Below are positions 11,751 to 62,600 of a stretch of 64,000 nt of DNA, piece by piece. Source of the stretch: Raillietiella orientalis (lineage: Eukaryota). The notes under the pieces are model-generated. The model made no database searches. It worked only from the letters and a program-made list of their open reading frames with translations, and had not been told where the DNA came from. The position numbers and the translations under genes were made by a program. Position 1 is the stretch's first letter; every line of letters begins with the position of its first letter. The stretch lies in assembly GCA_036172245.1 (NCBI GenBank), contig JAYWIR010000019.1, positions 2,418,001 through 2,482,000 on the forward strand, read 5' to 3'.

Positions 11751-12450
11751 TCTTTTTTGGTTCGCCAAGTGCTGAAGAACCGTTCGCCTCCTTAGAGGGG
11801 GCTCCCGGAGCTCTTAAACGCGGTCCACATCACCCCACGAAGGTGCGCGTAACTATTCGAGTCAGGGGGCAACTCCGGAGGGATCGCCCTACGAATCCGG
11901 GACGGTTCCGGAGGAAGCAGTCCGTTCCCCTCACGCTCGGGAGGGGAACGCCGGAGGGAACCACCTCTTCCTTGTTCTCTCCGGAGGGACTTTCCGGAGA
12001 AACCCTTTGGAAAGGATCAGCTCCTGACTTCCTCCTCTGAAGAGAACTCCGGAGGGCCGCTTCCCAGTTTCTCTGAAGGGCTCACCCTAAAAGGAGCAGC
12101 GCTCTCTTTAACACTCTTCTACACCTCTGAACCAGCAGCTCCATGGCACCGCTCCATTTTCACAACCGGGGGAAATCCTGAAGGAAACCGGCGCTCCTGG
12201 ATCCCTGTGGAATCCCGGAGGGTCACCTTCCAGTCCCGGACACTCAACAGGGTACATCCGGGGCTTTCCGGTTTCCAGCAGTGACGCACTCGAATAGGCC
12301 TACCGGCGTCATCCTGAGGGGGGGAGAACTCGAAACCCACGCCTCTTGCCCCCCGTTCTCGGCGTTTACCCTTCGCCGCCCGACGAGTCCGAAGCCGCGA
12401 CGCCTGGCGCCATGTGCGGAGGAGACCGCAGCCATGTGCCCGCCAACCTG
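11751..12450 (-). mobile_element. SINE-like family A, copy 1 (tRNA-related head at ~12326-12450, A-tail at ~11753)
   Basis: Alignable by eye to the copies at 51011, 55545 and 59240: shared AGTGCT(G/A)AAGAACCGT in all four and CTCCATTTTCACAA in copies 1-3. The T-run at the left end is a poly(A) tail on the minus strand, and B-box-like motifs lie at the right end. Confidence 0.7.
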
Positions 12451-13399: not shown

Positions 13400-15960
13400 C
13401 CCGGCGAGCTGCGGGTCCGAATCCCCTCCCCCCCTTCCGTTTGCCACACAGCGCGTGGGCGCAGGAACGCGCCCTTGCCACTCTGCCAATGCAAATCAGT
13501 AGATCGCGACGGCGGATCGCACCCAGTGGATGCAGCTGAAAACCTGCATCCGCGCGGATCCAGTGCGAAAAGTGTCCTGCCTGGCAACTGCTCCCTCTTT
13601 GCCCGTCGCGAGAAGGGAGAAGTCGGAATCGAACCATCGCGCGTCTTTGTGACAGGCTGTCAATAGGATTTTACGTCATTTGTTGGTTCCGCACAAGTCA
13701 CGAGAGTTCCCACTGCATCTTTTCTTCCCCCCTTCCCCCCTCCATCTCCTAACGGGACTGCGAACACTCCACCGAGATTTTCCGTTTGGAAACCGAGTCC
13801 TCTTTGGTACTCTCCCTGCGTCCGTCCAACTGGGAGGCTGCGCGGAGGGACGCCGTGCGCAAGACGCTTCATCGTTGAGCGGAGCAGGGGTGCCAGGCTG
13901 GGGCGAGCTACCCCCATTGCTCTCACGAGTTCCGGATGCCCGCAAAGCTTCCGGATCGGCAAGCTGCCTTGGTGGAACGAGAAATGTGGTCCTGCTGACC
14001 GAAGAGGAAGCTGGAAGAGGAGCTGCCTTAGACCCTTTTCCCAGGTTCCAGAAGGACACTCTCCCGGAGGAAAGGAACACCTGACCAGAGAAATTGCCAA
14101 CTCTTTGGCGGTGTTCCAAGTTGTACTGCATGCAAAGCAACTTCTGCAGCAACGTGACCGTCAGGGAGTTAGTCGTCCAAGGCGCTGGTCGCTCGGCTCC
14201 CGGCGACTCAGGAAGAGACGCCTCGTGGGAAGGTCACTCCGTAGTCAGAGGAGAGAGTAAATCCCTCGGAATGGGCTGCATGCACTAGAGAACACGAATG
14301 TTCACTCAGCAAGGGTCCTCCTGATGGCAGGCCTTGGGAGGGCCCATCGACGGGAGTCCGCAGAAAGGAACGAACCTCACGCTCAAGAAGAATCCATCCA
14401 CTTCTTCGACGGTGTATCCGAGACGCACGTGATGGGTCCAGCTCGTCTGCGACCAAGGAAGACGGGGGACGGATGGCTTAGAAGAAGACGTGGCTCTCTC
14501 GAGGAGCAAATGAGGACGGGCTGACGGCTGGCTGTGCCGCTCCTCGGATTTGCTTACTTTTTGTGGACGGAGGGGCCGCCGGTGTTCTTGCAAGATGGAG
14601 GGCCCTTCTCTCGTGCTTCCCGCGGCTTCCATCTTGACCCTTTTCTCTTCTTCCTCGGCCGCGCGGACCGCATTCCCCGTCGCACAGTCAGCAAGCGCGA
14701 CATCGCTTTCTGTTGAACGCCCGAGGCAGGAGCGCTCCCACACCGGGGTTTCAGAAAATTTTCAGCGGGAGGAGAGACAAGTTGGGAGAGCAACCCTCCT
14801 CCTCGAAACGTTCTTCCTTCACGGAAGAGGGAAGCAGGAGGAGAATGGAGCAGTTCCGAAATCAGGACTGACAGCAGCAGGGTGGGCGCAAACATAGGTG
14901 CACCATAGGTTTTTTGTTTGGCTCCGGGGCTTGTGGGGATGATTGATGAAGTTCCAATTGTTCCGTAAGGCCCTTCGGAGTGCACTGCAAACCGGAAACC
15001 CAAGGCAAGTCTGCCGCGCGGCCTGTAGCGACCGGGTCCGGAAAGGAATCCTTCCTCGGTTTTCCTGCGAGATCGCAGGCAGGCGGAAACTGATGAGTGA
15101 ATGGACCATGGGACAGTTCGCGCATGTGGCAACCCCGAGTGCCCTTCCACGAGAATCACAGCACTGGGGAGAGCTGCCCAGCATTCTTAGAGAAGACCTG
15201 AAGTGGCTCCCAGTGCACAACAACAGCAGCACCCTTCCCCTGAAGTGGCAGGGGTCGGCACTAATGCTGTTGCAATGGGATTCCCCCTGAAACGCCCGCC
15301 GACATCACTGAACGCTGAGGAGGGCGAACCCGGACTGTCTCACGTGCGGGGAACGCGAATCCTCTCTCTTGCACCTGCTCGTGGACTGTGTTGTCCTCCG
15401 GTCCCTGTGGTAACGTTTGGGACCGGCCATCCGGATCCCGGTTGACACCCCCGGGGACTCTTTACGGCTCCTCTTTGTGCGGGACGCCCTGCAGTCAGCG
15501 GTCAGCCGCAGCCCCAGCAGCGCTTTGCTGTAGTTGCGGGATTATGGCGGTCTGGACTCGAAGCCGAGAGAGAAAGGGACGAGAGGGACATCGTCCAGTT
15601 CGTAGCTCGCTTCCTGAGGATAATGGTGGACAGATGGCCCCACCTGGGACCTATTCGAACGGATCTTTCTGGCATCCTGGAACAGATGAAAATTCCCTCC
15701 AGCGGACAGTGATCCCCTCACGACCCTCCAGATTGCTCTTATTTATTTTTATTTATTCTTTTGTTTTCTTTTTCTTTTTCTTTTCTTCCATCCCTCTCTG
15801 CTGCCGAAGTAAGCCCGTCGGTCTGCGTACCGGTGACCCGGCAGGTCCATCGAAGAATCAGTCGTGTGTGTGTGTGTAGGGGGGGGGGACTGCGTGCTCC
15901 ACCATGAATGTTGTAAGTTTGTTGCTTTGATTCAATAAACGCCCCGGCGTGGCAATCCCG
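13400..15960 (+). mobile_element. L1/Tx1-clade non-LTR retrotransposon family B, copy 1 (decayed RT, C-terminal CCHC and 3' UTR)
   Basis: LHP...VLPG (IHPxQxGFVPG), RGARLG/ELPPLL (RGxRQGxPLSPLL) and KSLGM (KYLG); CLTCGERESSLLHLLVDC (CX2CX8HX4C) at 15336-15389; T-rich 3' UTR and AATAAA at ~15934. Confidence 0.8.
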
Positions 15961-15969
15961 CTCTCCCTC

Positions 15970-17190
15970 GGAACCAAAGGGCCCGCATCCTACCTTTTGT
16001 GCTCCGGCCGAAAGGTGAGAAGGTACGGACTCTTCCACGGACGGATGATCACCATGGCTAACGAGAACAACTGGATGACCTGTTGCCACCGCAAACTCTA
16101 GCGCCTGGATGGAAGAAGAAGCAGTCTGCACGTGGGCGAAAATAAATGAGCCCAGCTCGGAGACGTCAAACCTCCTGCGATTCAGCAGCTACGCTCGCTG
16201 CGGAGGACCGTGGAGAGTCCCAGCATGAGCGAGTGAGTGGAGCGGACCCCTCTTGCTGCAGCGATGCCTTCCCTGAAGAAGGCAGTTGGCAGCGGCGAAC
16301 AGCCAAGGTGGGAGGTCTCCTGTGAGATCTCAGAAAGGAGGAAGGAGATGAGCGGTTGTACCATGGGGCAGCTGGCGGATGCTGTGATGCCTTTCCACGA
16401 AGACTTCAACGCTGGGGCAAGCTGCCCGGTGTTCCTTGCGAAGAATTCCTTAAGTAACTCACAGAGTTCGTGGACAGCAGTAGCAACCTCCCTGCGAAGT
16501 GGCAGGAGTTGGTACTACTGTTGTTGGATTGTATTCTTCCCTGCAACCGACATCATTGGACACTGGGGAGTGCGAATCTGGACTGTCGCAGGGAATCTCT
16601 CGGGAATCTCTCCTGCACCTGCTTGTGGACTCTATTGCCCTCCGGACCCTATGGGAACGTTTTGGGACGACCCTGCAGACCCCAGTCGGTCAACCTCAGG
16701 GACGTTTTACAGCTCCTCTTCGTGCGGGATGTCCTACAGCCAGCCGCAGCCTTAGCAGCTCTTTGCTGCATCCACGGGGTTGCGGCGGCCTGGAGAGACG
16801 CCGAAGCAGGTCCGAACGAAAGAGATGCCATCAGAGATTGCAGTTCGCTTTCTACGGACAGCAGCAGTCAGATGGCCCCTCCTGGGCACTAGGCAGATGG
16901 ACCTTGCCGGCACCCTGGAAAGGATGCAGAGGACTCCTCCCTCCAGCGGGAAGTGATCTCTTCCCATCCCTCCAGAGTGTTTTTATTTATTTATTTAATC
17001 TTTGTTTTTTTTCCTGCTCGCCGCCGCTGCCTAGGTGAGCCTCGCCGGTCTGCGCACCGGCAACCCGGCACGTTTCTGGTAGATTGGAACATGGTAGGAC
17101 TGCGTGTCTCACCGTGGGCTTTAGCGAGTCGGGTGTTGTTTCAATAACCTCCCCAGCGTGACCGGGTGGCGACCCCGGTTTCCCTCGCGC
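15970..17190 (+). mobile_element. L1/Tx1-like family B, copy 2 (5'-truncated, head-to-tail with copy 1)
   Basis: Colinear similarity to 14870-15960, including ESLLHLLVD, LLFVRD, AALCC, CAGATGGCCCC and the T-rich 3' UTR. Confidence 0.8.
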
Positions 17191-51010: not shown

Positions 51011-53015
51011 TTCCTTTTTTGGGGGTTCCTCAAAGTGCTAAAGAACCGTTCGCTCCCCGAGGGGGAGGGGGACTCGCAGAGCTCTTTAATGCTGTCCACG
51101 CTACCCCAGGGTGCGTGCAATCCTTCATCTTAGGGGGTCATTTTTGGAAGAGACCACCCTATGAACCCAGGATGGCTTCCTCTCACTCTTCCTCGTTGTC
51201 TCCAGAGGGAGCCCCCGGAAAGGATCCGCTCCTGAAATTTCTTCGGAGGGAATCCGCAAGGGAACCGCTCCTTGCTTACTCCTCTGACAAGAACTCCGAA
51301 GGGACGCTTCCTGATTTCTCCGAAGGATCGCTCCCCGAACAGCACGCTTCTTTGCACACTGGAGAGGTATCAGCCCAGCAGCTCCATGGTACAAGACGGA
51401 CGGTTCATCCACGAGGGGGAAAGGGCGACTCCATTTTCACAATCAGAGGGGAACCCGGAAGGAAATCGGTGCTCCTTGGTTCCTGGAAGGAACCAAGGAG
51501 AGCCAACTTCCAATCCCTCCCACTCAGCGAGGGCATCCGGATTCCACCAGTGCCGCCAAGGAGATGCAGCTCCGGTTTCAGACACTTGTCCTCGTGACAA
51601 ACCTGTGGAGTACCACCTGGTGCAACCTACACGTCTTCTCGTCCAGCAGATCACCGGCAGCGTGGGACTGGCGTCCTTCCTTGCTCACCCTCCACTCAGG
51701 CTCATCCACTGCGGACTGCACCTTCAGCAGGTGGCCATGCTGGTCAGGAAAACGGAAGGATCTCGTGCCACCCTGCGAACAGTAGTGCCTGGTTGCAGGG
51801 AACCGTTTGCACGTGGGCTAGGACCCGGGAACCAAGAGACCAAGTGTGGAACAGGTACGACGTTTCCTGTAGGCGCCTAACAACAACTGCACGCTCCGGG
51901 ATCCTGGAAGATCCTGCGAAGAGTGCATGGGAAAGCAGAACCTCCCTCGCCGCCGCGCTGCCCTCTCTTAAGGAGCATATGAACAGCAGTCTTACGAATA
52001 GATGGGAGGTTGCTGCGGAAATCTCCGGAAGAAGGAAAGGACGGGCAAGCTCACCGACGCTGCAACCCCGATTGCTCGACCTCGTGGACTTTTGCTCTGG
52101 GGCGTGCAACTGGGTATTCCGGTGGAAGACCTTCAGTGGACCCCAGTACTTCAGTGGACATCCGTACCCCCCCTTTAAAGTGGCAGTAGTCGGAGTTGAT
52201 GCTGTTGCACTGGGGCCTCCCGGCATCATTGGACATGGGAGTGTGTGAATCCAAACTTGTGTGCAAGATGCGGGTAGCGGGGATCCCTCTCACACCTCCT
52301 AGTGGACCGTGTTGCCCTCCGACCGCTGTGGGGATGCTTTGCCGCGCCCCTTGGAACTCCCTGCGTCAACTCCGTAGATGTGTTAAAATGTCTCTTCCTG
52401 CACGACTCCCTCACGACGGCCATAATCCCAGCAGCACTTTGCTGCCCACGCGGCGGGATCGTGGCTGCATGGAGCAGCAATGCCAGAGGAGGCCAGGACG
52501 ACAGGGACGTCATCTATTTTGCTGTCCTCTTCATGAGGGCAGCGTCAAGATGGCTTCATCTGGGAGTCTTGAAGCAGAAACTTGCCGGTATCCTTACAAG
52601 GATGCAGAGGACACCCTCCAGCACACGGTGATCCCTTCCCGAACCCCTCCATTTTTTGACTGTATGTTTTTCGTTTTATTTTTTTCTTTTTCTCTGTCTC
52701 CCCTTCCCCTGTACTGCCGGAGCGAACCCGGCTGTCCTGTGTGCCAGTTCCCGGCAGGTTCCTCCTCGTATTTACAAGTAACGAGACAGGATCAAACGTC
52801 CTGCCACTGACATGTATGTTTATTTCATAAATAAACGACCCGGCGTGACCGGGTGTTAACCAGTACTGCACCCGTGCCACCGGAAGCTCAACCAGCAGGG
52901 GGACTCGAAACACACGATTCACTCATGTCTCAGCGTCGATCCTTCCCCGGGCGGGATTTGAACCCGCGATGCTTGGTGATGCCACGCGTGGGGGAGACTG
53001 CAGCCACGAACGTCC
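51011..53015 (-). mobile_element. SINE-like family A, copy 2 (51011-51556 + 52859-53015), interrupted by L1/Tx1-like copy 3
   Basis: Colinear with copy 1; B-box GGTTCAAATCCC at 52953-52964 (minus strand); the body resumes after the insert. Confidence 0.7.
51557..52858 (+). mobile_element. L1/Tx1-like family B, copy 3 (5'-truncated)
   Basis: Similar to copies 1 and 2 (HLLVD, PAALCC, RWLHLG, T-rich UTR, AATAAACG..GGCGTGACCGGG end); flanked by the degenerate duplication ACCAGTGCCGC (51546-51556) / ACCAGTACTGC (52859-52869). Confidence 0.75.
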
Positions 53016-54343
53016 GGACCTGTCCACCTTCCCCGCCATGGGCAAAGCCGGGAGGTCTCCCAGGAGGCTCGCGTCCCCCCCTTCTCTCCGACGAGAAGTC
53101 TCTACCCGCATGCGCGCGGCGCCAACGCGGGCGTGCAGTCGACAAGGACCATTCGGAAGTGGAGCCACTCTGCCAAAGAGATGCTGTGCGAGGATCCCTG
53201 GTATCCTGGCGAAGCGGGGTCGGAGGCTTCGGAGAACGAGGGCGTGCGCGCCGAGCCGGGACAGCCAGGGGCCTTCCGGTTTGGTGAAATTTTTGGAGAC
53301 CTGAACCCGGACTGGGGTTTCCAGATGCTGACGCGAGGCGCAGCAGCTCCCGGAGCCGGCAGCCGCGGTGTTCGATTCTTTCGGGGGTGCTCCGCGCGCT
53401 GAAACTCCGCGATCCGAACGCGAGTTCGAGAATTTTCGATTCCGGGAACCCTCCGTCCCGACCTGGAGGGGGAGGGAAATTTCTGACATCCATTTCTCCA
53501 AGCGCGTGGGCGCTTCCAGCTTGCTGGTGTCCGTCGAAACATGGATCCGTGAAGATCGGGGATCTTTCAGCCCGCTGTATCCGGAACCTCAAGGAAGGAA
53601 GGCGGGGGAAGGCAGGGGAAGGGAGAAGGGAGAGAACTCGCATCCGAAAACCGAGGTTTGTCTCGGGATAATCCGATTTTCCGGGGAGGAAGAGGAGAGC
53701 CCGCATGCCACTCCGCTCCGGATTCATCTTCATTTCTGGAGATGGGCGCAGCCGAGCGGGCATTGGCTGCCTGCGCCTAATTAACAGGTCGCGACCGCAC
53801 TCGCGCAAGAAACGATGATGAATTTGTTCTTTCCGCAGGAAGGGGGGGAGGGGGGAGGAGGACTTAGTGTCCTCGGAGAGGAGGAAGAGGAGGAGGAGGC
53901 GATATTCCTTTCGCTCGATGGCAGCAGAAAGCGGCCGCCGAATTAGGATGCCAAGGCAGCGGCGGTGGCTCCTGGTTCGACAGCGTGTCGGGGGGCCGTT
54001 CACCGTCCCGGAAGACTTGGCCCTCCTGGATGTTCCTTAATTCCTCAACGCGTCTTCAAGAGCGGCACGGCGAGACCCTGCTAGTCGGCAAGCTCTCGCA
54101 GCATTTCTGGACTGCTCGTAGCGGCAGCGGGATTCCCGGTAGCCTAGTCCACGGATTTTTTTGTGTTTCCCTACTCCCCCTTCTTTCTCCAACCCCTGTT
54201 CCCCTTTTTCCACCAAAGATGTAGCTTTCTCTCTTAAGTATACACTGTATACCATTACTTACCTCATATTTCACCAATTCCACATTATACCGTTATCATT
54301 TATTTTGGGAAGTACTATATAGTTTCACGTTTTCCTTTTTTAC

Positions 54344-54445
54344 TTCGTTCCGACTTACGAGTCTGCAGTGCCTGACTTGCTTTTAAAAAGTGGGGCAGCT
54401 ATGCTCGGCAAGCTCAACATGGATGAATTTGTCATGGGCTCTGCA
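54344..54445 (+). pseudogene. gatA: Fragment of bacterial Glu/Asp-tRNA amidotransferase subunit A (amidase signature region), probable endosymbiont-derived insertion
   Basis: FVPTYESAVPDLLLKSGAAMLGKLNMDEFVMGSA matches the GatA amidase-signature segment (F.P.YESTV...GA..LGKLNMDEFAMGS); similarity stops abruptly on both sides. Confidence 0.85.
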
Positions 54446-55773
54446 GGTTCTTTCCGCAGTCTGATATGGCAGCTAATTTGCCAAGCCGCATTATATTTGT
54501 TAGGCGGTCTACCTTTGGAGGTAATAAGGATGGTCTTGACGGACTATCGGAAATACGGAGCAGTCTTGGAGGTGTCGAAACGGCCTCGAAAAACATTCGC
54601 TCAAAAGAGCTGCTGCCAGAAGCCTTCCTTTGTCACGCGCGCGCGCGCGCGCTCATACACACACAAAAAACACGTTAAACCAGGCCGTTTCGCAAGGATG
54701 AAAAGGAACGCATGCACGCACGTACGCGCACACGCGCGCGCGAAGTGTGTGTTTTCCCCTAGCTTTCCACAGTGATCCTCTCCATCCATCATGTCGGATC
54801 CCGCAGATGGGAGCTTCTTCTCAGATGGCCCCCTCGCCGATGCTTTCCGATCTCCGCTGCAACCTTCCTTGATCTCCACGACTCGCCGAGGTCGGGTGGT
54901 GCGGCGGCCGGGGAGAGTCCCGCGTGCGGCCGGATGCGGCTCCCGATCTCGCTCTTTGCGATCCCGAGGCTGCGATTTGGAGCCCGAAGCAGGGATGCAG
55001 GTGGCCCTCCGCTCGGAGGTTTCTCACCTCCCTCCCTTATCCGGGAGAGGTTGCCCTCCCGAGATGTCGACAGTTTCTCCCACCCGGGCAAAGCGATCCG
55101 TTACTCCCGCGCCCTCTCGGCGCTGATGCTGCGGGTTCCTGCGCTGCTCGGAGACGAGTGGAAATCTCATCGGAGGAGGCTTGCGCGCGCGCTCTCCCCG
55201 TTTCGGTTCCCTCCAAAAGGCGAACCCGTTCCTGTTCGCTTAGGAGGTAATTGGCCATCGGTTACGTCCGAGATGGTTGCAGCAGCATCCGAGCGAACGG
55301 CCCTGTAGGCCACAAATCAATGCAAATGAAGTTCTTCTCCCTTTCAGCTGCATGAGCGCGGCTCAGCCCCGAAGACACCCTGCTCCAGCAGGGCTCTGCG
55401 AGTGGCGAGCTGTGCAGTGAAGTACGAAGGTGACCATTAAGGAGATGGCGCTCATGACTGCATCAAGATACGAAGGCGCGTCAACGTCTTTTTTTTTTTG
55501 AAGAAAAAAAAAAAATTTCTTTTAATTACTTCTTTTCGGGTTTCCTTTTTCCTTTTTCTGGTTCGCCGAGTGCTGAAGAACCGTCCGCCTCCTCGGGAGG
55601 GGCTCGCGAAGCGCTTTAACGCTGTCCGCTCCACCCGAGGGTCTACGTAACTCTTCGAGATAAGGGGGAGTACCTCTATCACCCCTATGACCACCTTAGG
55701 AATCCGAGAAGGACTCCGGAGGAAGGAGTTCGTTCCTGCCACACTTAGGAGGGAACCTCCTCCTTGGTGGTCT

Positions 55774-56690
55774 GCGATTTCTACCCGGACACGCCGTAGG
55801 CGTTTATTAAAAGTGAAAACAAACTCCTATACTGTAGTAGGACTCTGGTCCTATCACCCTCAGTCGGTCCACGCGCCTGTCGGGTAGCCAGTACGCAGAT
55901 CGGCGGGGCTCCCCTCGACAGCGGAGGAGGACAGGAGAAAACAAAAATAAAAAATAAAAAGAAAGAGTAAAGAAAAATAAATAAAATTTTTTGGGAGGGT
56001 CGGGAAGGGACTACTGTCCACTGGAGGAAGTCCTCTGCATTCTTTCCAGGATGCCGGCGAGGACCGTCTAAATAGGTCCCAGGTGGGGCCATCTGGCCGT
56101 TATCCGCAGAAAGCGAACTGCGAACTGGACGGTGTCCCTCCCGTCGCGTCCCCTGTAGGCCTCGCTCCAGGCCGCCGCAATCCTGAGGATGAAGCAAAGC
56201 GCTTCCGGGCCTGCGACTGGCTGCACAGCGTCCCTCACGAAGAGAAGGGGAAATCTCATCGGAGGAGGCTTGCGCGCGCGCTCTCCCCTCGTAAAGAGTC
56301 CCTGGGGGTGCCGACCGGGATCCGGATGGTCGTCCCCAAACGTTCCCACAGGGGCCGGAGGGGCCGTTCCCTGCAGTCCACGAGCAGGGATTCGTGTTCC
56401 CCGCACGTGCGACAGTCCGGGTTCGCCCTCCCCAGCGTTCAGTGGTGTTGGTGGGCGTTGTAGGAGCAACCCGAGTGCAACAGCAGAAGTGCCGGCTCCT
56501 GCTGCTTCAGGGAGAGGATGCTGCTGTTGAGCATCGGGAGCCACTCCAGGTCTTCGCTAAGAATGCCGGGCGGCTCTCCCCGGCGCTATGGTCTTCGTGG
56601 AAGGGCACTCGGGCACTCGGGGCCCCAGCTGCCCGATGGTCCATCCTCACTCATCAGCTGCTGCCTGCGTGCGATCTCGCAGAAGACTAG
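55774..56690 (-). mobile_element. L1/Tx1-like family B, copy 4 (5'-truncated, inverted)
   Basis: The reverse complement closely matches 15060-15950 (CCCGGACTGTC.CACGTGCGGGGAAC.CGAATCC; VQFAVRFLRITARWPHLGPI); degenerate flanking duplication CCTTGGTGGTCT / CCTGGTGCTCT. Confidence 0.8.
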
Positions 56691-57025
56691 CCTGGTGCTC
56701 TTCGAAGGGAACCACCTCTTCCTCATTCTCTCCAGAGAGAACCCTCGGAGGGGCCACTCCTCTTTTCTTCTCCGGAGAGAACCCGGAAAAGATGCGCTCC
56801 TGGAATTTCTTCCCTGGAGGGAACCCACAAGGGAACCGCTCCCCGGTTTCCTCCTCTGGAGGAATCCCGAAGGGACGCTTCCCAATTTCCTCTGAAGGGC
56901 GCTCCCCGAAGGGAGCAGGGCGCTTCTTCAGATTCTGGAGAGGTATCGATTTACAACCCTCCATTGGTACGCGATGGAGTATTCCCCCCAAGGGTGGGAG
57001 GGGGGAGACGGCTCCATTTTCACAA

Positions 57026-57912
57026 TTTTTCCCCAGTTCCGACAAACAGTGGGGTGGGTTTATTGATCAACAACAAATGTCCCCAATGGCAACAACAATA
57101 ACTCGCACTCTTGCACTCACCTCTGTGGATTCCCACAGTTTGCTTTTTGCGCACGTAGCGTCTGCAATGCCACGATCGGGGTGGTTTCCTCGGAATAGGG
57201 GGAATGAAGGGCGGTGCACTCGCTCGGGTCACGTCCGCGATTTGCAAGATGTAGCGGTACTTCCAGGAGGGTTTTCCTGACGTGATTCCTGATCCCAATC
57301 TCTCGCTTGATCGGTTCTTGTAGTATGGCGATGGCGGGCGCTGTAGCTCCCGTGTTCCTCATCTTTGCCCTTCTGATCACGATCGCTGTGATGGAGAGGG
57401 CGATGGTGGTCCGAACCATGGGATTGTATCGCGGAGCCTTGGCGCTCCCGCTAAGATGTTCACTTGTGGTCCTCTGCAGGCCAGTCATCGCCTTCAGCGT
57501 GCTCCAGTCCTAACGCAGCGTCGGGCAGCTGAAGAAGCGGAGCCGGGTTTTCCTGCTGTCATACGCCTTGCAGAGCTCGCTATCGATGTTGCCAGTGTGC
57601 TGTCCTGCTCCCACTCAGGATGCCTCCATAGTAGGAGGAGGTCGTTTTGAATGCCTGGTGGTAGGTCGCTCTCAAAAGGCTGTGGTTCCAATCGCCTGCA
57701 AGTTCACCATCCGTGCCCCGTAGCCGTTGGTAGCCATGGTGAGGACATCTTTCTCCTGGTAACGTTGCTTCATTGAGTCGCAGATGTTGGCTTCGGTGGT
57801 CAGGATCCAAGCGTTGGATGCGTGGTGCTTCCAAAGCTCTCGCGCCTTGCCGGTGAATCTTCCACTCATGGTTTGCGCGTAGCAAAACAGTCGCATCTTG
57901 TGGCTGCTGCCA
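57026..57912 (-). other. 887-bp retroposed sequence of unknown origin with a 14-bp target-site duplication
   Basis: CTCCATTTTCACAA occurs at both 57012-57025 and 57913-57926; A5 tail at 57026-57030 and AATAAA at 57059-57064 on the minus strand; paralogous empty sites at 12152-12165 and 51429-51442. Confidence 0.85.
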
Positions 57913-59239
57913 CTCCATTTTCACAACCGGAGGGGAACCTCAAAGGACTCCTTGATTTCCGGAAGGATCCCAGAAGATCCGATGGTCAGTCCAAAGGGGC
58001 ATCCGACTTCCACGAGTACCGCACCCGAATAGGCCAACCAGAGTCATCTTTGCGAAGGGGAGGAGGGAATCGAAACCCACGACGCGTCCCCCGTTCTCGG
58101 TGCCGATCCTACACGTGGGGATCCGAACCAGCAGCTCATGGTGCCACGCGCGCGGAGACCGCAGCCGCGCGGCTGTCAACACGGGCTGGCGTATGTGGAC
58201 ACGACACTCAAGTGTCCCCAAACTCGGCATTGCGCGTACTGCGCGTCCCGTCGAGGAGCGTCGAATGGCATTGCTAACGCGATGGGAAAGGCGCTTCCCA
58301 AGAAAATTCCGCGGGAATTTCGAGAACAGGGATCCGCGGCTCTTGAGAAGCTGCCACGGCAGGGATTCCACCAGCCCTTTCGATGTTCTTCCCTTTCCGC
58401 TCCCTCCCTCAGGACCGGCTGAGCGGGCTCCGAGCTCTTCGTGCGCGGCGGGGACCGGTGTTGCACGGACCCGCTAGCGCCTCGTTCGACTTCCGGACGA
58501 GTCGGGAAAATCACGCGGGTTCTCACCGAGCGTTCCATGGCAACCACGCAGATCTTCAGGGGTTCTAGAAAGAAAAAAAAAAACCTCCCCGGGCGGATCC
58601 CTTCCTCTTTGAGACGAACCGCGCTCTGGAGTAGGGGAGGAAGGTCTCGAGCAAAGATCCGGGACTGAAGGGTGCACGAAGGGTGTCCCTCACGGAACGA
58701 CCTGCAGCATCCTGAGAACGTGACTGCACAGTGGAAACTCTGGAAAGGAAAGCACCAGGAGCACTCGTTCCCGCTGCTCTCCCAATCAATCAGCATGTTT
58801 CAGTACTCTTTATCTGGTACAGAACCCGTCCAGCTGCTGCAACATTTCTCTCCCTCTCCCCCTCTCTCTGTGTATGTGTGTGTGTGTGTGTGAATGGGAT
58901 TCTTATCTGAAGCGGGCTGAAGGCGCGTAGCTGCAGATTCCCTCTGGAACGTGGCACGGGAAGATCAATTTTGTTCCGCGGCGGAGGGAGCGACTTCCTT
59001 CGGATTCCGAGGACGCAGCCAATTAGGACGAAGCGGGAACCTCCTCGGTTGTTGATAGATGCCCAGGAGGAGCTCCTCCGGTAATTCGTTCTTCGGACGA
59101 AGACACAATGCTCGCAGCAGCGTCGCAACGGGAAGGGTGGAACCCGGACTCAGGAGCGTGCCGGCGCAGGGCAGGCACGGCCGCGTCCATTCTGGCAGTC
59201 TTTCTTGCCTGGCGCTTGAAGCTAATGGGATGCTGAGTT

Positions 59240-59670
59240 CTGATGGCAAGTGCTGAAGAACCGTTCGTCTCCTCAGGGAGGGGCTGACAAGGCTCTTTGA
59301 TACCATCTGCGCCATTCGAGGGAGCGCGTGACTCTTCGAGCTAGGGGAGGGGGGGTACTCCGGGAGTGGACCGCCCTATGGATCCAGGAAGGCTCCGGAG
59401 GAAGGAGTCCGTTCCACTTTCGCTTGGGAAGGGAACACCGAAGGGATCCTCTTCCTTAAGGGCTATCCCGAAACGTCGCTTGGATGGGGCCACTCCGAAG
59501 GGAACCCTCCCTCCTTGATTCCTGGAAGGTCCCCGGAAGCCAGCCAACGGGAGAACCGCTCCCTCCTCCCTATGTCTCCCGAGTCGACCCTTCCCCGGGC
59601 GGGATTCGAACCCGCGACGCTTGGCTCCAAGCGCGGAGGAGACCGCGCGGCCACGCGCCCGCCAACACGG
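59240..59670 (-). mobile_element. SINE-like family A, copy 4 (internally deleted, best-preserved tRNA-like head)
   Basis: A-box-like TGGCCGCGCGG (59643-59653) and B-box GGTTCGAATCCC (59601-59612) on the minus strand; the body matches the other copies. Confidence 0.75.
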
Positions 59671-62600
59671 GGGCCGAGTGTTGAAGAGAATGCGTCTTCT
59701 GTTCTGCGAACTCGGAGTACACCAACCGTAGGAACGCGCGCTGCTCGCGAGCAGTCCGTGTCCTCATCCCTCTCGAACGAGCCGTGGCAATGCTGGACCT
59801 CACCGTTTCTTCCTTTCCTTTCTTTTAATGATCCCGACCTGCTTGGACCGTCGGGAGTGCATTCCGCGCACGTTTCCGGTTTCCATCGTTCGAGGTCGTC
59901 GTCGGGAACGAAGTTTCCCTCGAGCGCGGGCACCGCGAGCGTTTCCTAAGAAATCCGTCGACAGCCCAAAGTGTGTGCGAACTTTCGGTTCCCGCCCAAG
60001 GGCGTCCTTAACCTCCTCGTCACTTTGGTCTCTCCTCTCCCTGATCATCCAGAAGAAATTGGAGAGAGAGAGAGAGAAAAGAAAAAAACAGGGCAAGAAG
60101 ATTATGGAATTCTCCACAGCGGTTAGGACACACCTGGTTGCGGTGCTTCTCCGTAACGTGGGTGATGGTGACCGAAAGCACCGATGTGTGATGCACGCTT
60201 TGCTTCCGATCTGCGCTACCTCCAGCAGGCAACGCATCCCCCATGTGATCAACGTTCTCCACGTATGGAGCATGAAATACACCCGGCACACTCCCCCTTT
60301 GTGATGCCGCCGCGCGTGTGCGTGCGTGTTTTCTTCAAGAGCTTGGCTTCCTGATTTTCGTCGACGGAGAGACAAAGGAAATCCGCGGATATTAACTCGG
60401 AGAGGTACCCACGTGCGAGGGAGCGCCAGATTCTGCTTCGTACCCCGGAAAACCCTTTGCCGCTTCACCGACCCATCGTCTCGGGAGGGATGGGAATTAC
60501 TTCTTACCTGCACCCAATTCCCCGCACCTGCCTGCCGTACGCGAAAACTGGTACAGCGCTCTTCCATCCGAGCTACGTCATCGCCACCGCGGTGCTTTTC
60601 CGCGAGGTGAACCTCCCGTGATAATCTGATTCCAGTGATTTTTGTTTTATGCTCCCTCGGCCCCGCTTACATTCGGAGCCTCGAAGAAACGACGGTTCTT
60701 CTTTTTCGTTGCTACGCGGCGCTCTCTCCGTGGGCCTCGTACTTGTTCAGCCGTCAGCCACCGCGCAGCAAGGAGAAAACACGTGATCAGGAGTCCCCGA
60801 TAAAGTCATCCCACCCTTACAAAGAACTGCAGCTCATCTTGAATCCGTGAAACCAAAATCGCCAGAATCTCTCGGGCATGCAGATTATCTCCTGGTTTAG
60901 CTCTCATTTTCCCCTGATTTTCCCGCAGAATCGATTTGTCGGGGGAATTTTCGTTCCCGTTCCATTTTCAAGTCCGTCCTCGAGGAGAGGCGTGTTGGGC
61001 CGTGGCAACACGCTGGAGCTGCTCCTTCTGCCCGCCACCCCATGCCGCGCCGATGCGGCGGGGTTTTCGCGTAACGCACAGCTCAGAGATGCAGAGCTGC
61101 GCGTCCAGGCAACGCCGCAGCCCTCTAGGTGGACCGAGAGGGAACCAGCAAGAATGGATTGACCTTTTTTTTCCCTCCTCCTTAATCCGCAGTGTGGATT
61201 TTCGCTTTAAAACTCTCGTAGTCCTTCAGATGCAAATGAGCGCCCGTTAAAGAGACCTCCCCGTTTCAAAGCACTTTCAGGGAAGAGGGGGGGGGGGACC
61301 CCTCTTATTTCTGAAGCGTTTCAAGCAATGCAGCTTCGAGTGCTTCCTAAAAGTTTGTTTTTTTTTTTTTTTAATTGCGGCCATCCCGACGGCGAACCAT
61401 GAGAGAAACGCGCGCACCAATCCATGCAATCGAGGAAGGGAGTTCTTCGAGGCGCCATCTCAGAGGACCAGCAAACGCCTGCGTTTCAAGACGAGCATAT
61501 CTTTGAACGCGCGGTTCCCAGTTCCAACACGAGCAAACATCTCATTAACTCAGAGGAAGAATCCGATTACGCTGTCTGGGATCTCGAACACGGTGCTCTG
61601 CCAATGTTCAATCCCTGGATCTGCCTCGCAAATTGCGTTTCCCGCGCGGAGAGCACGCGATGCTGCGGACGCGTTCCGTCGAGGGCGCGTTCGTTTAAAG
61701 CCATCATGCAATTCAGCTGCTGAAAGGAGTTCTTCTTTCACATTGCTTTTTATTTACTTTGGTCCCCCAGCAATATGTCAATCAGATGAAGATAGTGAGA
61801 ACGGGCTTCAAAGGAACTGGGAGACTTGTTTGTCAAGATAAGCGGATGACGTCCGGGCGACGGGTTGCTCTTCCATCCCATTATTCTCTTCTCCCTCTGT
61901 TTTCTGCTCACCGATTACAACCGATTCATGAACTGTAAAATGTTTCTATTATTTGGGGCAAAAATCATTGGAAGAATGTCGCGGAGAAATGAAATAATCT
62001 TATCAGCTCCCCATTGTAAACAAATTACTGCTGGAGAGACGGACACCTGGAGGGAAAAATTCCACCTTTCGGGAGGGAGTAACCGGGCAACGAATTCGAA
62101 ACCAAGGCGAAAATTGCCAGAAGTCCAATTACGCAGAAATTCCGTGGTCAGATGAACTGCGTGCGCGGTAGGCGATGGTTTTTTCCTCACCTGACGTAAC
62201 TTCCCGAATTTCAAACGACGTACGTGGCAGGGTGGTACTATCTCGTCCGCTCTCTGAGATCCCCCCACCTATGGGAATCCCGGATTTCCCGGGGGGAAGG
62301 AGAAGACCGCGCAAAGGTTATCTGGAGCTTGCTGGCTTCGGGAGTTGCGAAAATTGTTTCTTCTTCTTCTTCTTCTTTTCCCGGCGCGTTCTGCTCCATT
62401 TGATGCAGCCGTTTCGGCGAGCCTTGAAGAATGTCAACCTGCTGCTGCTGCTTGCATGCGAAGACTGCACAAAGGCCGGGGCAGCTCGAAATCAAAAGGT
62501 CTGCCATCACTTTTCGGGTTCGGGAATGTGTTTTTGGATAAAGTCCGTTTTTTCCTCTCTCTCTCTCTCTTTTCCTTGAGGGAGAGGAGGAAGAGGGAGA

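Follow-up and report, generated by a model that had tools for sequence, protein, structure and literature searches.

A retroposed, 5′-truncated copy of a polyadenylated coding transcript in an old interspersed repeat of Raillietiella orientalis

Within a 64-kb stretch of DNA from Raillietiella orientalis (64,000 bp, analysed as a whole and here called the window), one copy of an old interspersed repeat is interrupted by 887 bp which are missing from two related copies. The first-pass annotation had taken this segment for a retroposed, coding-like RNA and had proposed as its source either a captured, nucleoprotein-like mRNA of an RNA virus or a host transcript. The locus raises the question of which transcript was copied and how the copy was integrated. 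The insert is a retroposed, 5′-truncated and now broken copy of a polyadenylated coding transcript. The retroposition reading is supported, and the insert is most likely of an ordinary kind, either a truncated LINE copy or a processed pseudogene. No evidence ties it to a virus, and the viral reading is unsupported.

Boundaries of the insert and its insertion site

The 14-mer CTCCATTTTCACAA occurs four times without mismatch in the 64-kb window, at positions 12152, 51429, 57012 and 57913, while only 0.04 occurrences are expected from shuffled sequences and none of 100 shuffles reached four or more. When three mismatches are allowed, 10 sites are found against 7.4 expected, so that the six additional sites are at chance level. 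Two of the four exact copies form a target-site duplication (TSD) around the insert (57012..57025 on the left, 57913..57926 on the right). They are identical in 14 of 14 positions as had been claimed, and because the bases immediately outside both copies differ, the duplication is exactly 14 bp long. The insert between them covers 57026..57912 (887 bp) and has the minus strand as its sense strand.

The other two exact copies represent empty paralogous sites, the first located inside the old interspersed repeat (12152..12165) and the second at 51429..51442. In the alignment of the paralogues (A1), the left and the right flank of the insert together correspond to uninterrupted paralogue sequence and thus form one continuous copy of the old interspersed repeat. 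When the flanks were joined in silico and compared by blastn, a single HSP (query 469-779) crossed the junction at 725 and matched 51199-51504 with 72% identity (E 1e-37). The insertion boundaries which had been deduced from these two sites could thus be confirmed by the alignment as well as by the junction-spanning HSP. As the copies of the host repeat around the insertion site are 65-81% identical to each other while the two copies of the TSD match in 14 of 14 positions, the insertion is younger than the repeat family.

At the 14-mer of the TSD, alignment A1 has a block of twelve consecutive columns (203-214) in which all rows agree, while identity between the copies of the host repeat is otherwise only about 72-81%. 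Five more invariant columns in the neighbourhood (195, 196, 200, 215 and 216) stand apart from this block. Since the paralogues had been found via the exact 14-mer, the invariant block may be explained by ascertainment; it may also mark a core of the repeat that is conserved, or a site at which insertion is preferred.

At its 3′ end, on the minus strand, the insert carries a residual A-tail of five nucleotides (57026..57030) which directly abuts the TSD. The poly(A) signal AATAAA (57059..57064, minus strand) is found 28 nt upstream of the tail and is the only AATAAA of the insert on either strand. Both features agree with the earlier description, the tail being short. The probability that AATAAA lands by chance in a zone of 26 nt is about 0.012, and that for AAAAA is about 0.006 per position; the joint chance of AATAAA, 28 nt and then five A on the minus strand is well below 1e-3. 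Terminal repeats are missing from the insert: none of the 6 inverted-repeat pairs found connects its termini, and among 11 families of direct repeats only the TSD does so, which leaves no long direct terminal repeats (LTRs). TSD, poly(A) signal, short A-tail and empty paralogous sites together bear out the signature of RNA-mediated insertion on which the first-pass annotation had built. A TSD, a poly(A) signal, an A-tail at the junction and the absence of terminal repeats are the signature of target-primed reverse transcription (TPRT) by a non-LTR retrotransposon.

Alternatively, a piece of DNA or cDNA could have been captured when a staggered double-strand break was repaired, or an unconventional DNA transposon could have been at work. 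Uptake of foreign DNA by routes other than retrotransposition would be exemplified by a short Wolbachia-derived fragment 2.6 kb away (see below). However, the classic marks of TPRT are present, with an A-tail exactly at the TSD, a poly(A) signal and a duplication of 14 bp which is clean; the insert has no terminal inverted repeats, and we know of no DNA-transposon superfamily that makes 14-bp TSDs. We consider such a route very improbable.

The surroundings of the insert show some further features. On the plus strand, about 120 bp (54332-54451) code for 36-40 residues which are 78-83% identical to residues ~98-135 of GatA from many Wolbachia strains. Of the 23 protein matches to this region, all 14 named ones are from Wolbachia, whereas identity to 80 other bacterial GatA loci, all non-Wolbachia and used as identity control, is 42-71% (median 65%). 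Its immediate surroundings are AT-rich (GC 0.40), and the rest of gatA is missing from the window. An amidase exon at 54323-54772, initially assigned on the basis of a single Pfam match (E 1.8e-5), was replaced by this GatA assignment of 54332-54451. The fragment is probably a short nuclear Wolbachia insert, as judged from about 40 residues. This would point to an arthropod or nematode host which carries or once carried Wolbachia and has bacterial inserts in its genome. A recognisable host gene was not found in the window. With ARAGORN, no tRNA was detected in the insert; a tRNA-like structure with a 4-base anticodon is predicted at 59591-59673 (minus strand), and this region is repeated at 52925-53001 with 81% identity. 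The two regions may represent the head of a tRNA-derived SINE. With Rfam, no match in the window reached the gathering threshold, and near the insert there was a single chance match below it.

Codon-phase composition and state of the reading frame

The window is strongly depleted in TA (observed/expected 0.51), while CpG is near 1 and the GC content is 52.6%. It contains 275 stop-free frames of at least 100 aa, which are spread across all six frames. Of the 215 frames with at least 110 aa, only one has a Pfam match at E up to 0.001 while 214 have none, and no RT-like ORF is among them. The longest ORF of the insert has 130 aa; first-order Markov simulations (1000 runs) average 135 aa, and 51% of them reach 130 aa. 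With TA depleted and ORF lengths at chance level, ORF length is no evidence of coding in this window. The first-pass annotation had described a near-continuous reading of the minus strand, and the three peptide pieces which it quoted do occur in the frames given for them; their continuity, however, does not exceed what is expected by chance.

A coding signal was found at the level of codon phase. The period-3 signal of the insert is 4.35, while 316 tiles have a mean of 1.65 and a 95th percentile of 2.82, and only 0.6% of them reach 4.35. The GC content of the minus strand of the insert differs between the three phases (0.64, 0.51 and 0.51). The phase-by-base chi2 is 25.5 for the whole insert (p 2.8e-4), which is the highest value among 71 tiles, the maximum among the 70 other non-overlapping tiles of 887 nt being 14.8. 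The signal is concentrated in the first 630 nt of the minus strand (57282..57911; chi2 34.1, p 6.5e-6), where frame 1 has its codons starting at 57911, 57908 and so on, while periodicity is absent from the last ~250 nt (257; p 0.79). The claim of a coding-like RNA with the minus strand as sense strand is thus upheld.

The composition by codon position is also that of a gene. In frame 1, taken over the whole insert, position 1 has A.35 and G.26 (61% purine) while T is rare; the stretches on which the phase model was trained have A.39 and G.25 at position 1 as well as C.42 and G.31 at position 3, with a GC3 of ~0.73. Such a pattern is usual for GC3-rich genes, and the strand that shows it also carries the poly(A) signal. 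It is thus supported that the insert is coding-derived, and this support comes from codon-phase composition and not from ORF length.

The coding look might be a compositional accident, the template being a non-coding RNA or a non-autonomous retroposon. ORF lengths at chance level, with a single Pfam match among the 215 ORFs of at least 110 aa, would fit such an explanation, as would the lack of a homologue in the searches that were run. It is at odds with the phase-by-base chi2, for which the insert ranks first among 71 tiles, and with the agreement between the strand of the codon positions and that of the poly(A) signal. We regard an accident as very unlikely.

Outside the insert, the three highest chi2 values include two, 14.8 and 13.0, from tiles (starting at 55882 and at 15080) which overlap two copies of an old repeat of ~800 bp. 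This repeat occurs in three copies (15065-15845, 16318-17073 and, inverted, 55876-56682) which are 65-73% identical and have no Pfam match. It may be a fragment of an ancient coding transposable element.

Returning to the coding-derived insert, frame 1 is disrupted by an in-frame TGA at 57672..57674, a second TGA at 57615..57617 and a TAG at 57510..57512 (all on the minus strand). From ~57705 to 57612, the phase model, trained on other parts of the insert, prefers frame 0 over frame 1 by 5-10 bits, and in this stretch frame 0 also outscores frame 2, to which the first-pass annotation had switched. While its main frame (frame 1) carries the phase signal, its middle frame (ESDLPPG...) turned out to be the least supported of the three in its stretch. 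This suggests that ~57612-57705 is either a frame excursion between two compensating frameshifts or a compositionally odd stretch. If frameshifts bracket this local excursion, the first two stops of frame 1 would fall within it. A retained intron was considered as cause of the excursion but, by eye, no GT...AG pair reopens the frame.

The last stop of frame 1, a TGA at 57117..57119, might be the original stop codon, although periodicity is lost already from ~57282 downwards. The stretch without periodicity (57031..57281) is read as 3′ UTR and/or as decayed end of the ORF. The insert is thus a decayed copy of roughly 210-265 codons followed by an untranslated end of 90-250 nt. With three in-frame stops in frame 1, this copy is now without function. 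At the other end, codon periodicity sets in right at the start of the insert, as would be expected if the copy begins within an ORF.

Search for relatives of the insert

Within the 64-kb window, a further copy or a related fragment of the insert was not found, the only match being that to itself. A tblastx match between the insert and 17045-17146 (E 0.001) is weak and failed as a DNA alignment.

None of the reading frames could be assigned to a protein family. Pfam was searched with six ORFs of the insert, with its plus-strand ORFs and with the X-read-throughs P0003 and P0027, and no family was found, the best matches being irrelevant ones to NadA (E 0.019) and Trp_oprn_chp (E 0.11). The 165-aa C-terminal reading (P0001), which rather than the N-terminal reading P0002 was the only query of the exhaustive phmmer search, remained without a match (E up to 0.001) in a set of 1.84 billion representative proteins. 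A word-index search among longer proteins returned 299 candidates for P0001 and 9 for P0002, none of which scored. Among PDB sequences, the best match was Dpo4 at E 0.6, which is not significant, and a capsid match was not found. Three scans of 2.9 million viral contigs, as well as scans of metagenome contigs, gave pattern matches but no relative by tblastn; such scans find close relatives only. Structure prediction, which the first-pass annotation had suggested as a check, was run on P0001 and P0002 with AlphaFold2 without an alignment, but the models are unusable, their mean pLDDT (36.8 and 48.9, respectively) being too low to support a fold search. All of the predicted secondary structure is helical, at very low confidence.

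These results bear on the proposal that the insert is an endogenous viral element, derived from an RNA-virus mRNA for a nucleoprotein-like protein which was captured by LINE machinery. The retroposition signature is compatible with such an origin, as are the absence of a cellular homologue of P0001 among 1.84 billion proteins and, at very low confidence, the all-helical prediction. However, no similarity to any viral protein was found with Pfam, with the PDB, with the 2.9 million viral contigs or with the scan of 1.84 billion proteins, so that the viral part of the first-pass annotation could not be substantiated. Moreover, a canonical AATAAA at 28 nt from the tail indicates that cleavage and polyadenylation took place in the nucleus, and a GC3 of ~0.73 is atypical for RNA viruses. 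The mRNAs of mononegaviruses and orthomyxoviruses, by comparison, are tailed by stuttering on a U tract. Judged from the position of the signal and from GC3, the template would have been a nuclear Pol II transcript and not the mRNA of a cytoplasmic RNA virus. A viral source is, in our judgement, a shade less probable even than a compositional accident.

A single lead on the identity of the template comes from the ESM Atlas. For the N-terminal piece of 82 aa, the nearest clusters are annotated as 'Retrotransposon gag domain' (scores 0.93 to 0.88, recognition 2550), although these neighbours share just 117-136 of 256 features and the tool classes matches of this kind as leads. The C-terminal ORF of 130 aa has no neighbour, with a best score of 0.76. 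For P0002, P0003 and P0027, the Pfam model Retrotrans_gag (PF03732) did not match at E up to 10. The resemblance to retrotransposon Gag, as obtained from a language model, is thus weak. It seems unlikely that an unsampled virus or an unsampled lineage of capsid/gag-like genes supplied the mRNA that was retrocopied here; if this were true, the insert would be the fossil of a family that is otherwise unsampled.

The Gag-like lead also fits a processed pseudogene, for which an mRNA of a host gene or of a gene derived from a transposable element (e.g. a gag-like gene) would have been reverse-transcribed in trans by LINE machinery. Its parent would be lineage-specific or missing from databases. TSD, poly(A) signal and tail are equally expected in this case. 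The GC3-rich, purine-first codons are typical of nuclear genes, the insert is single-copy in the window and has no LINE-like match, and an ATG with A at -3 is located 16 nt from the 5′ end, so that a near-full-length short mRNA is possible. Against this stand the searches that were run, in which no piece of the insert had a homologue while a conserved host gene would have matched, the silence of the Retrotrans_gag model and the low Atlas score of the 130-aa ORF, as well as the rarity of processed pseudogenes relative to LINE fragments in invertebrates. We consider a processed pseudogene possible but doubtful.

Proposed mechanism and comparison with known systems

We infer that TPRT was the mechanism and that the template was a LINE. 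A Pol II transcript, protein-coding and polyadenylated, would have been copied into cDNA and placed in the genome by a non-LTR retrotransposon with its endonuclease and reverse transcriptase; the insert would be this copy, now dead. A staggered cut in the old interspersed repeat would have been followed by priming at the A-tail, by copying towards the 5′ end which stopped early, and by a fill-in which yielded the 14-bp duplication. The template would most likely have been the RNA of the retrotransposon itself, with the insert corresponding to the 3′ UTR and to the C-terminal end of ORF2, a tail without domains, of a poly(A)-type (Jockey/L1-like) LINE family which is missing from databases.

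One reason to favour a LINE is a matter of priors, as truncated LINE copies vastly outnumber processed pseudogenes in invertebrate genomes. In many LINE ORF2s, the last 265 codons lie downstream of the RT domain and are free of Pfam domains. This also affects an argument of the first-pass annotation, namely that the insert does not look like the 3′ end of a LINE because it has no RT motif. The absence of an RT domain was confirmed by Pfam, but the conclusion is weak since the tails of ORF2 beyond RT lack known domains, and the insert is thus compatible with LINE membership. Published descriptions point in the same direction: according to passages of PMC1947958, the 3′ end of Juan-A (Jockey clade) has a canonical polyadenylation signal, and most non-LTR families largely consist of 5′-truncated copies.

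Several findings speak against a LINE. Pfam detects no RT, endonuclease or other domain in any frame of the insert, and P0001 has no relative among 1.84 billion proteins, where a widespread LINE family might have matched. Neither a second copy nor an RT-like ORF is found in the window, the A-tail has only 5 nt, and GC3 is ~0.73, a value which one would sooner expect in host genes than in many insect transposable elements. On balance, we see an even chance that the insert is a 5′-truncated copy of a poly(A)-type LINE.

The insert represents a textbook retroposition event of an ordinary kind, and it may be useful as a clean, datable insertion marker. A more general lesson is that long ORFs mean nothing in TA-depleted DNA while codon-phase composition still discriminates. 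The locus would gain greater weight only if its template were viral or a novel gag-like gene.

When compared with known systems, the insert differs from endogenous bornavirus-like N elements by having a canonical nuclear poly(A) signal and no similarity to viral proteins, while it shares with them a TSD and an A-tail around a coding fragment of the size of a single gene. The capsid domain of retrotransposon Gag (PF03732) is resembled in the language-model features of the first 82 residues and presumably also in the peptide FTGKARELW, which by eye looks similar to an L-x-G-x-A-x-x-W-like motif of Gag capsids, but the insert has neither an HMM match at E up to 10 nor a capsid match in the PDB. 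In LTR elements, moreover, Gag is far from the 3′ poly(A) end, unlike in the insert. Processed pseudogenes mediated by LINEs have a parent gene, while for the insert neither a parent nor a homologue turned up in the searches run; the insertion signature, the coding-type codon pattern and the decayed frame are the same. Truncated copies of Jockey (Juan-A) and L1-like elements differ from the insert, which is devoid of RT and endonuclease, has no database relative, is single in the window and carries a tail of only five A. Like these copies, the insert has a TSD of the variable-length kind (here 14 bp), a canonical AATAAA close to its 3′ end and an A-tail directly next to the TSD; it is likewise truncated within an ORF and free of terminal repeats.
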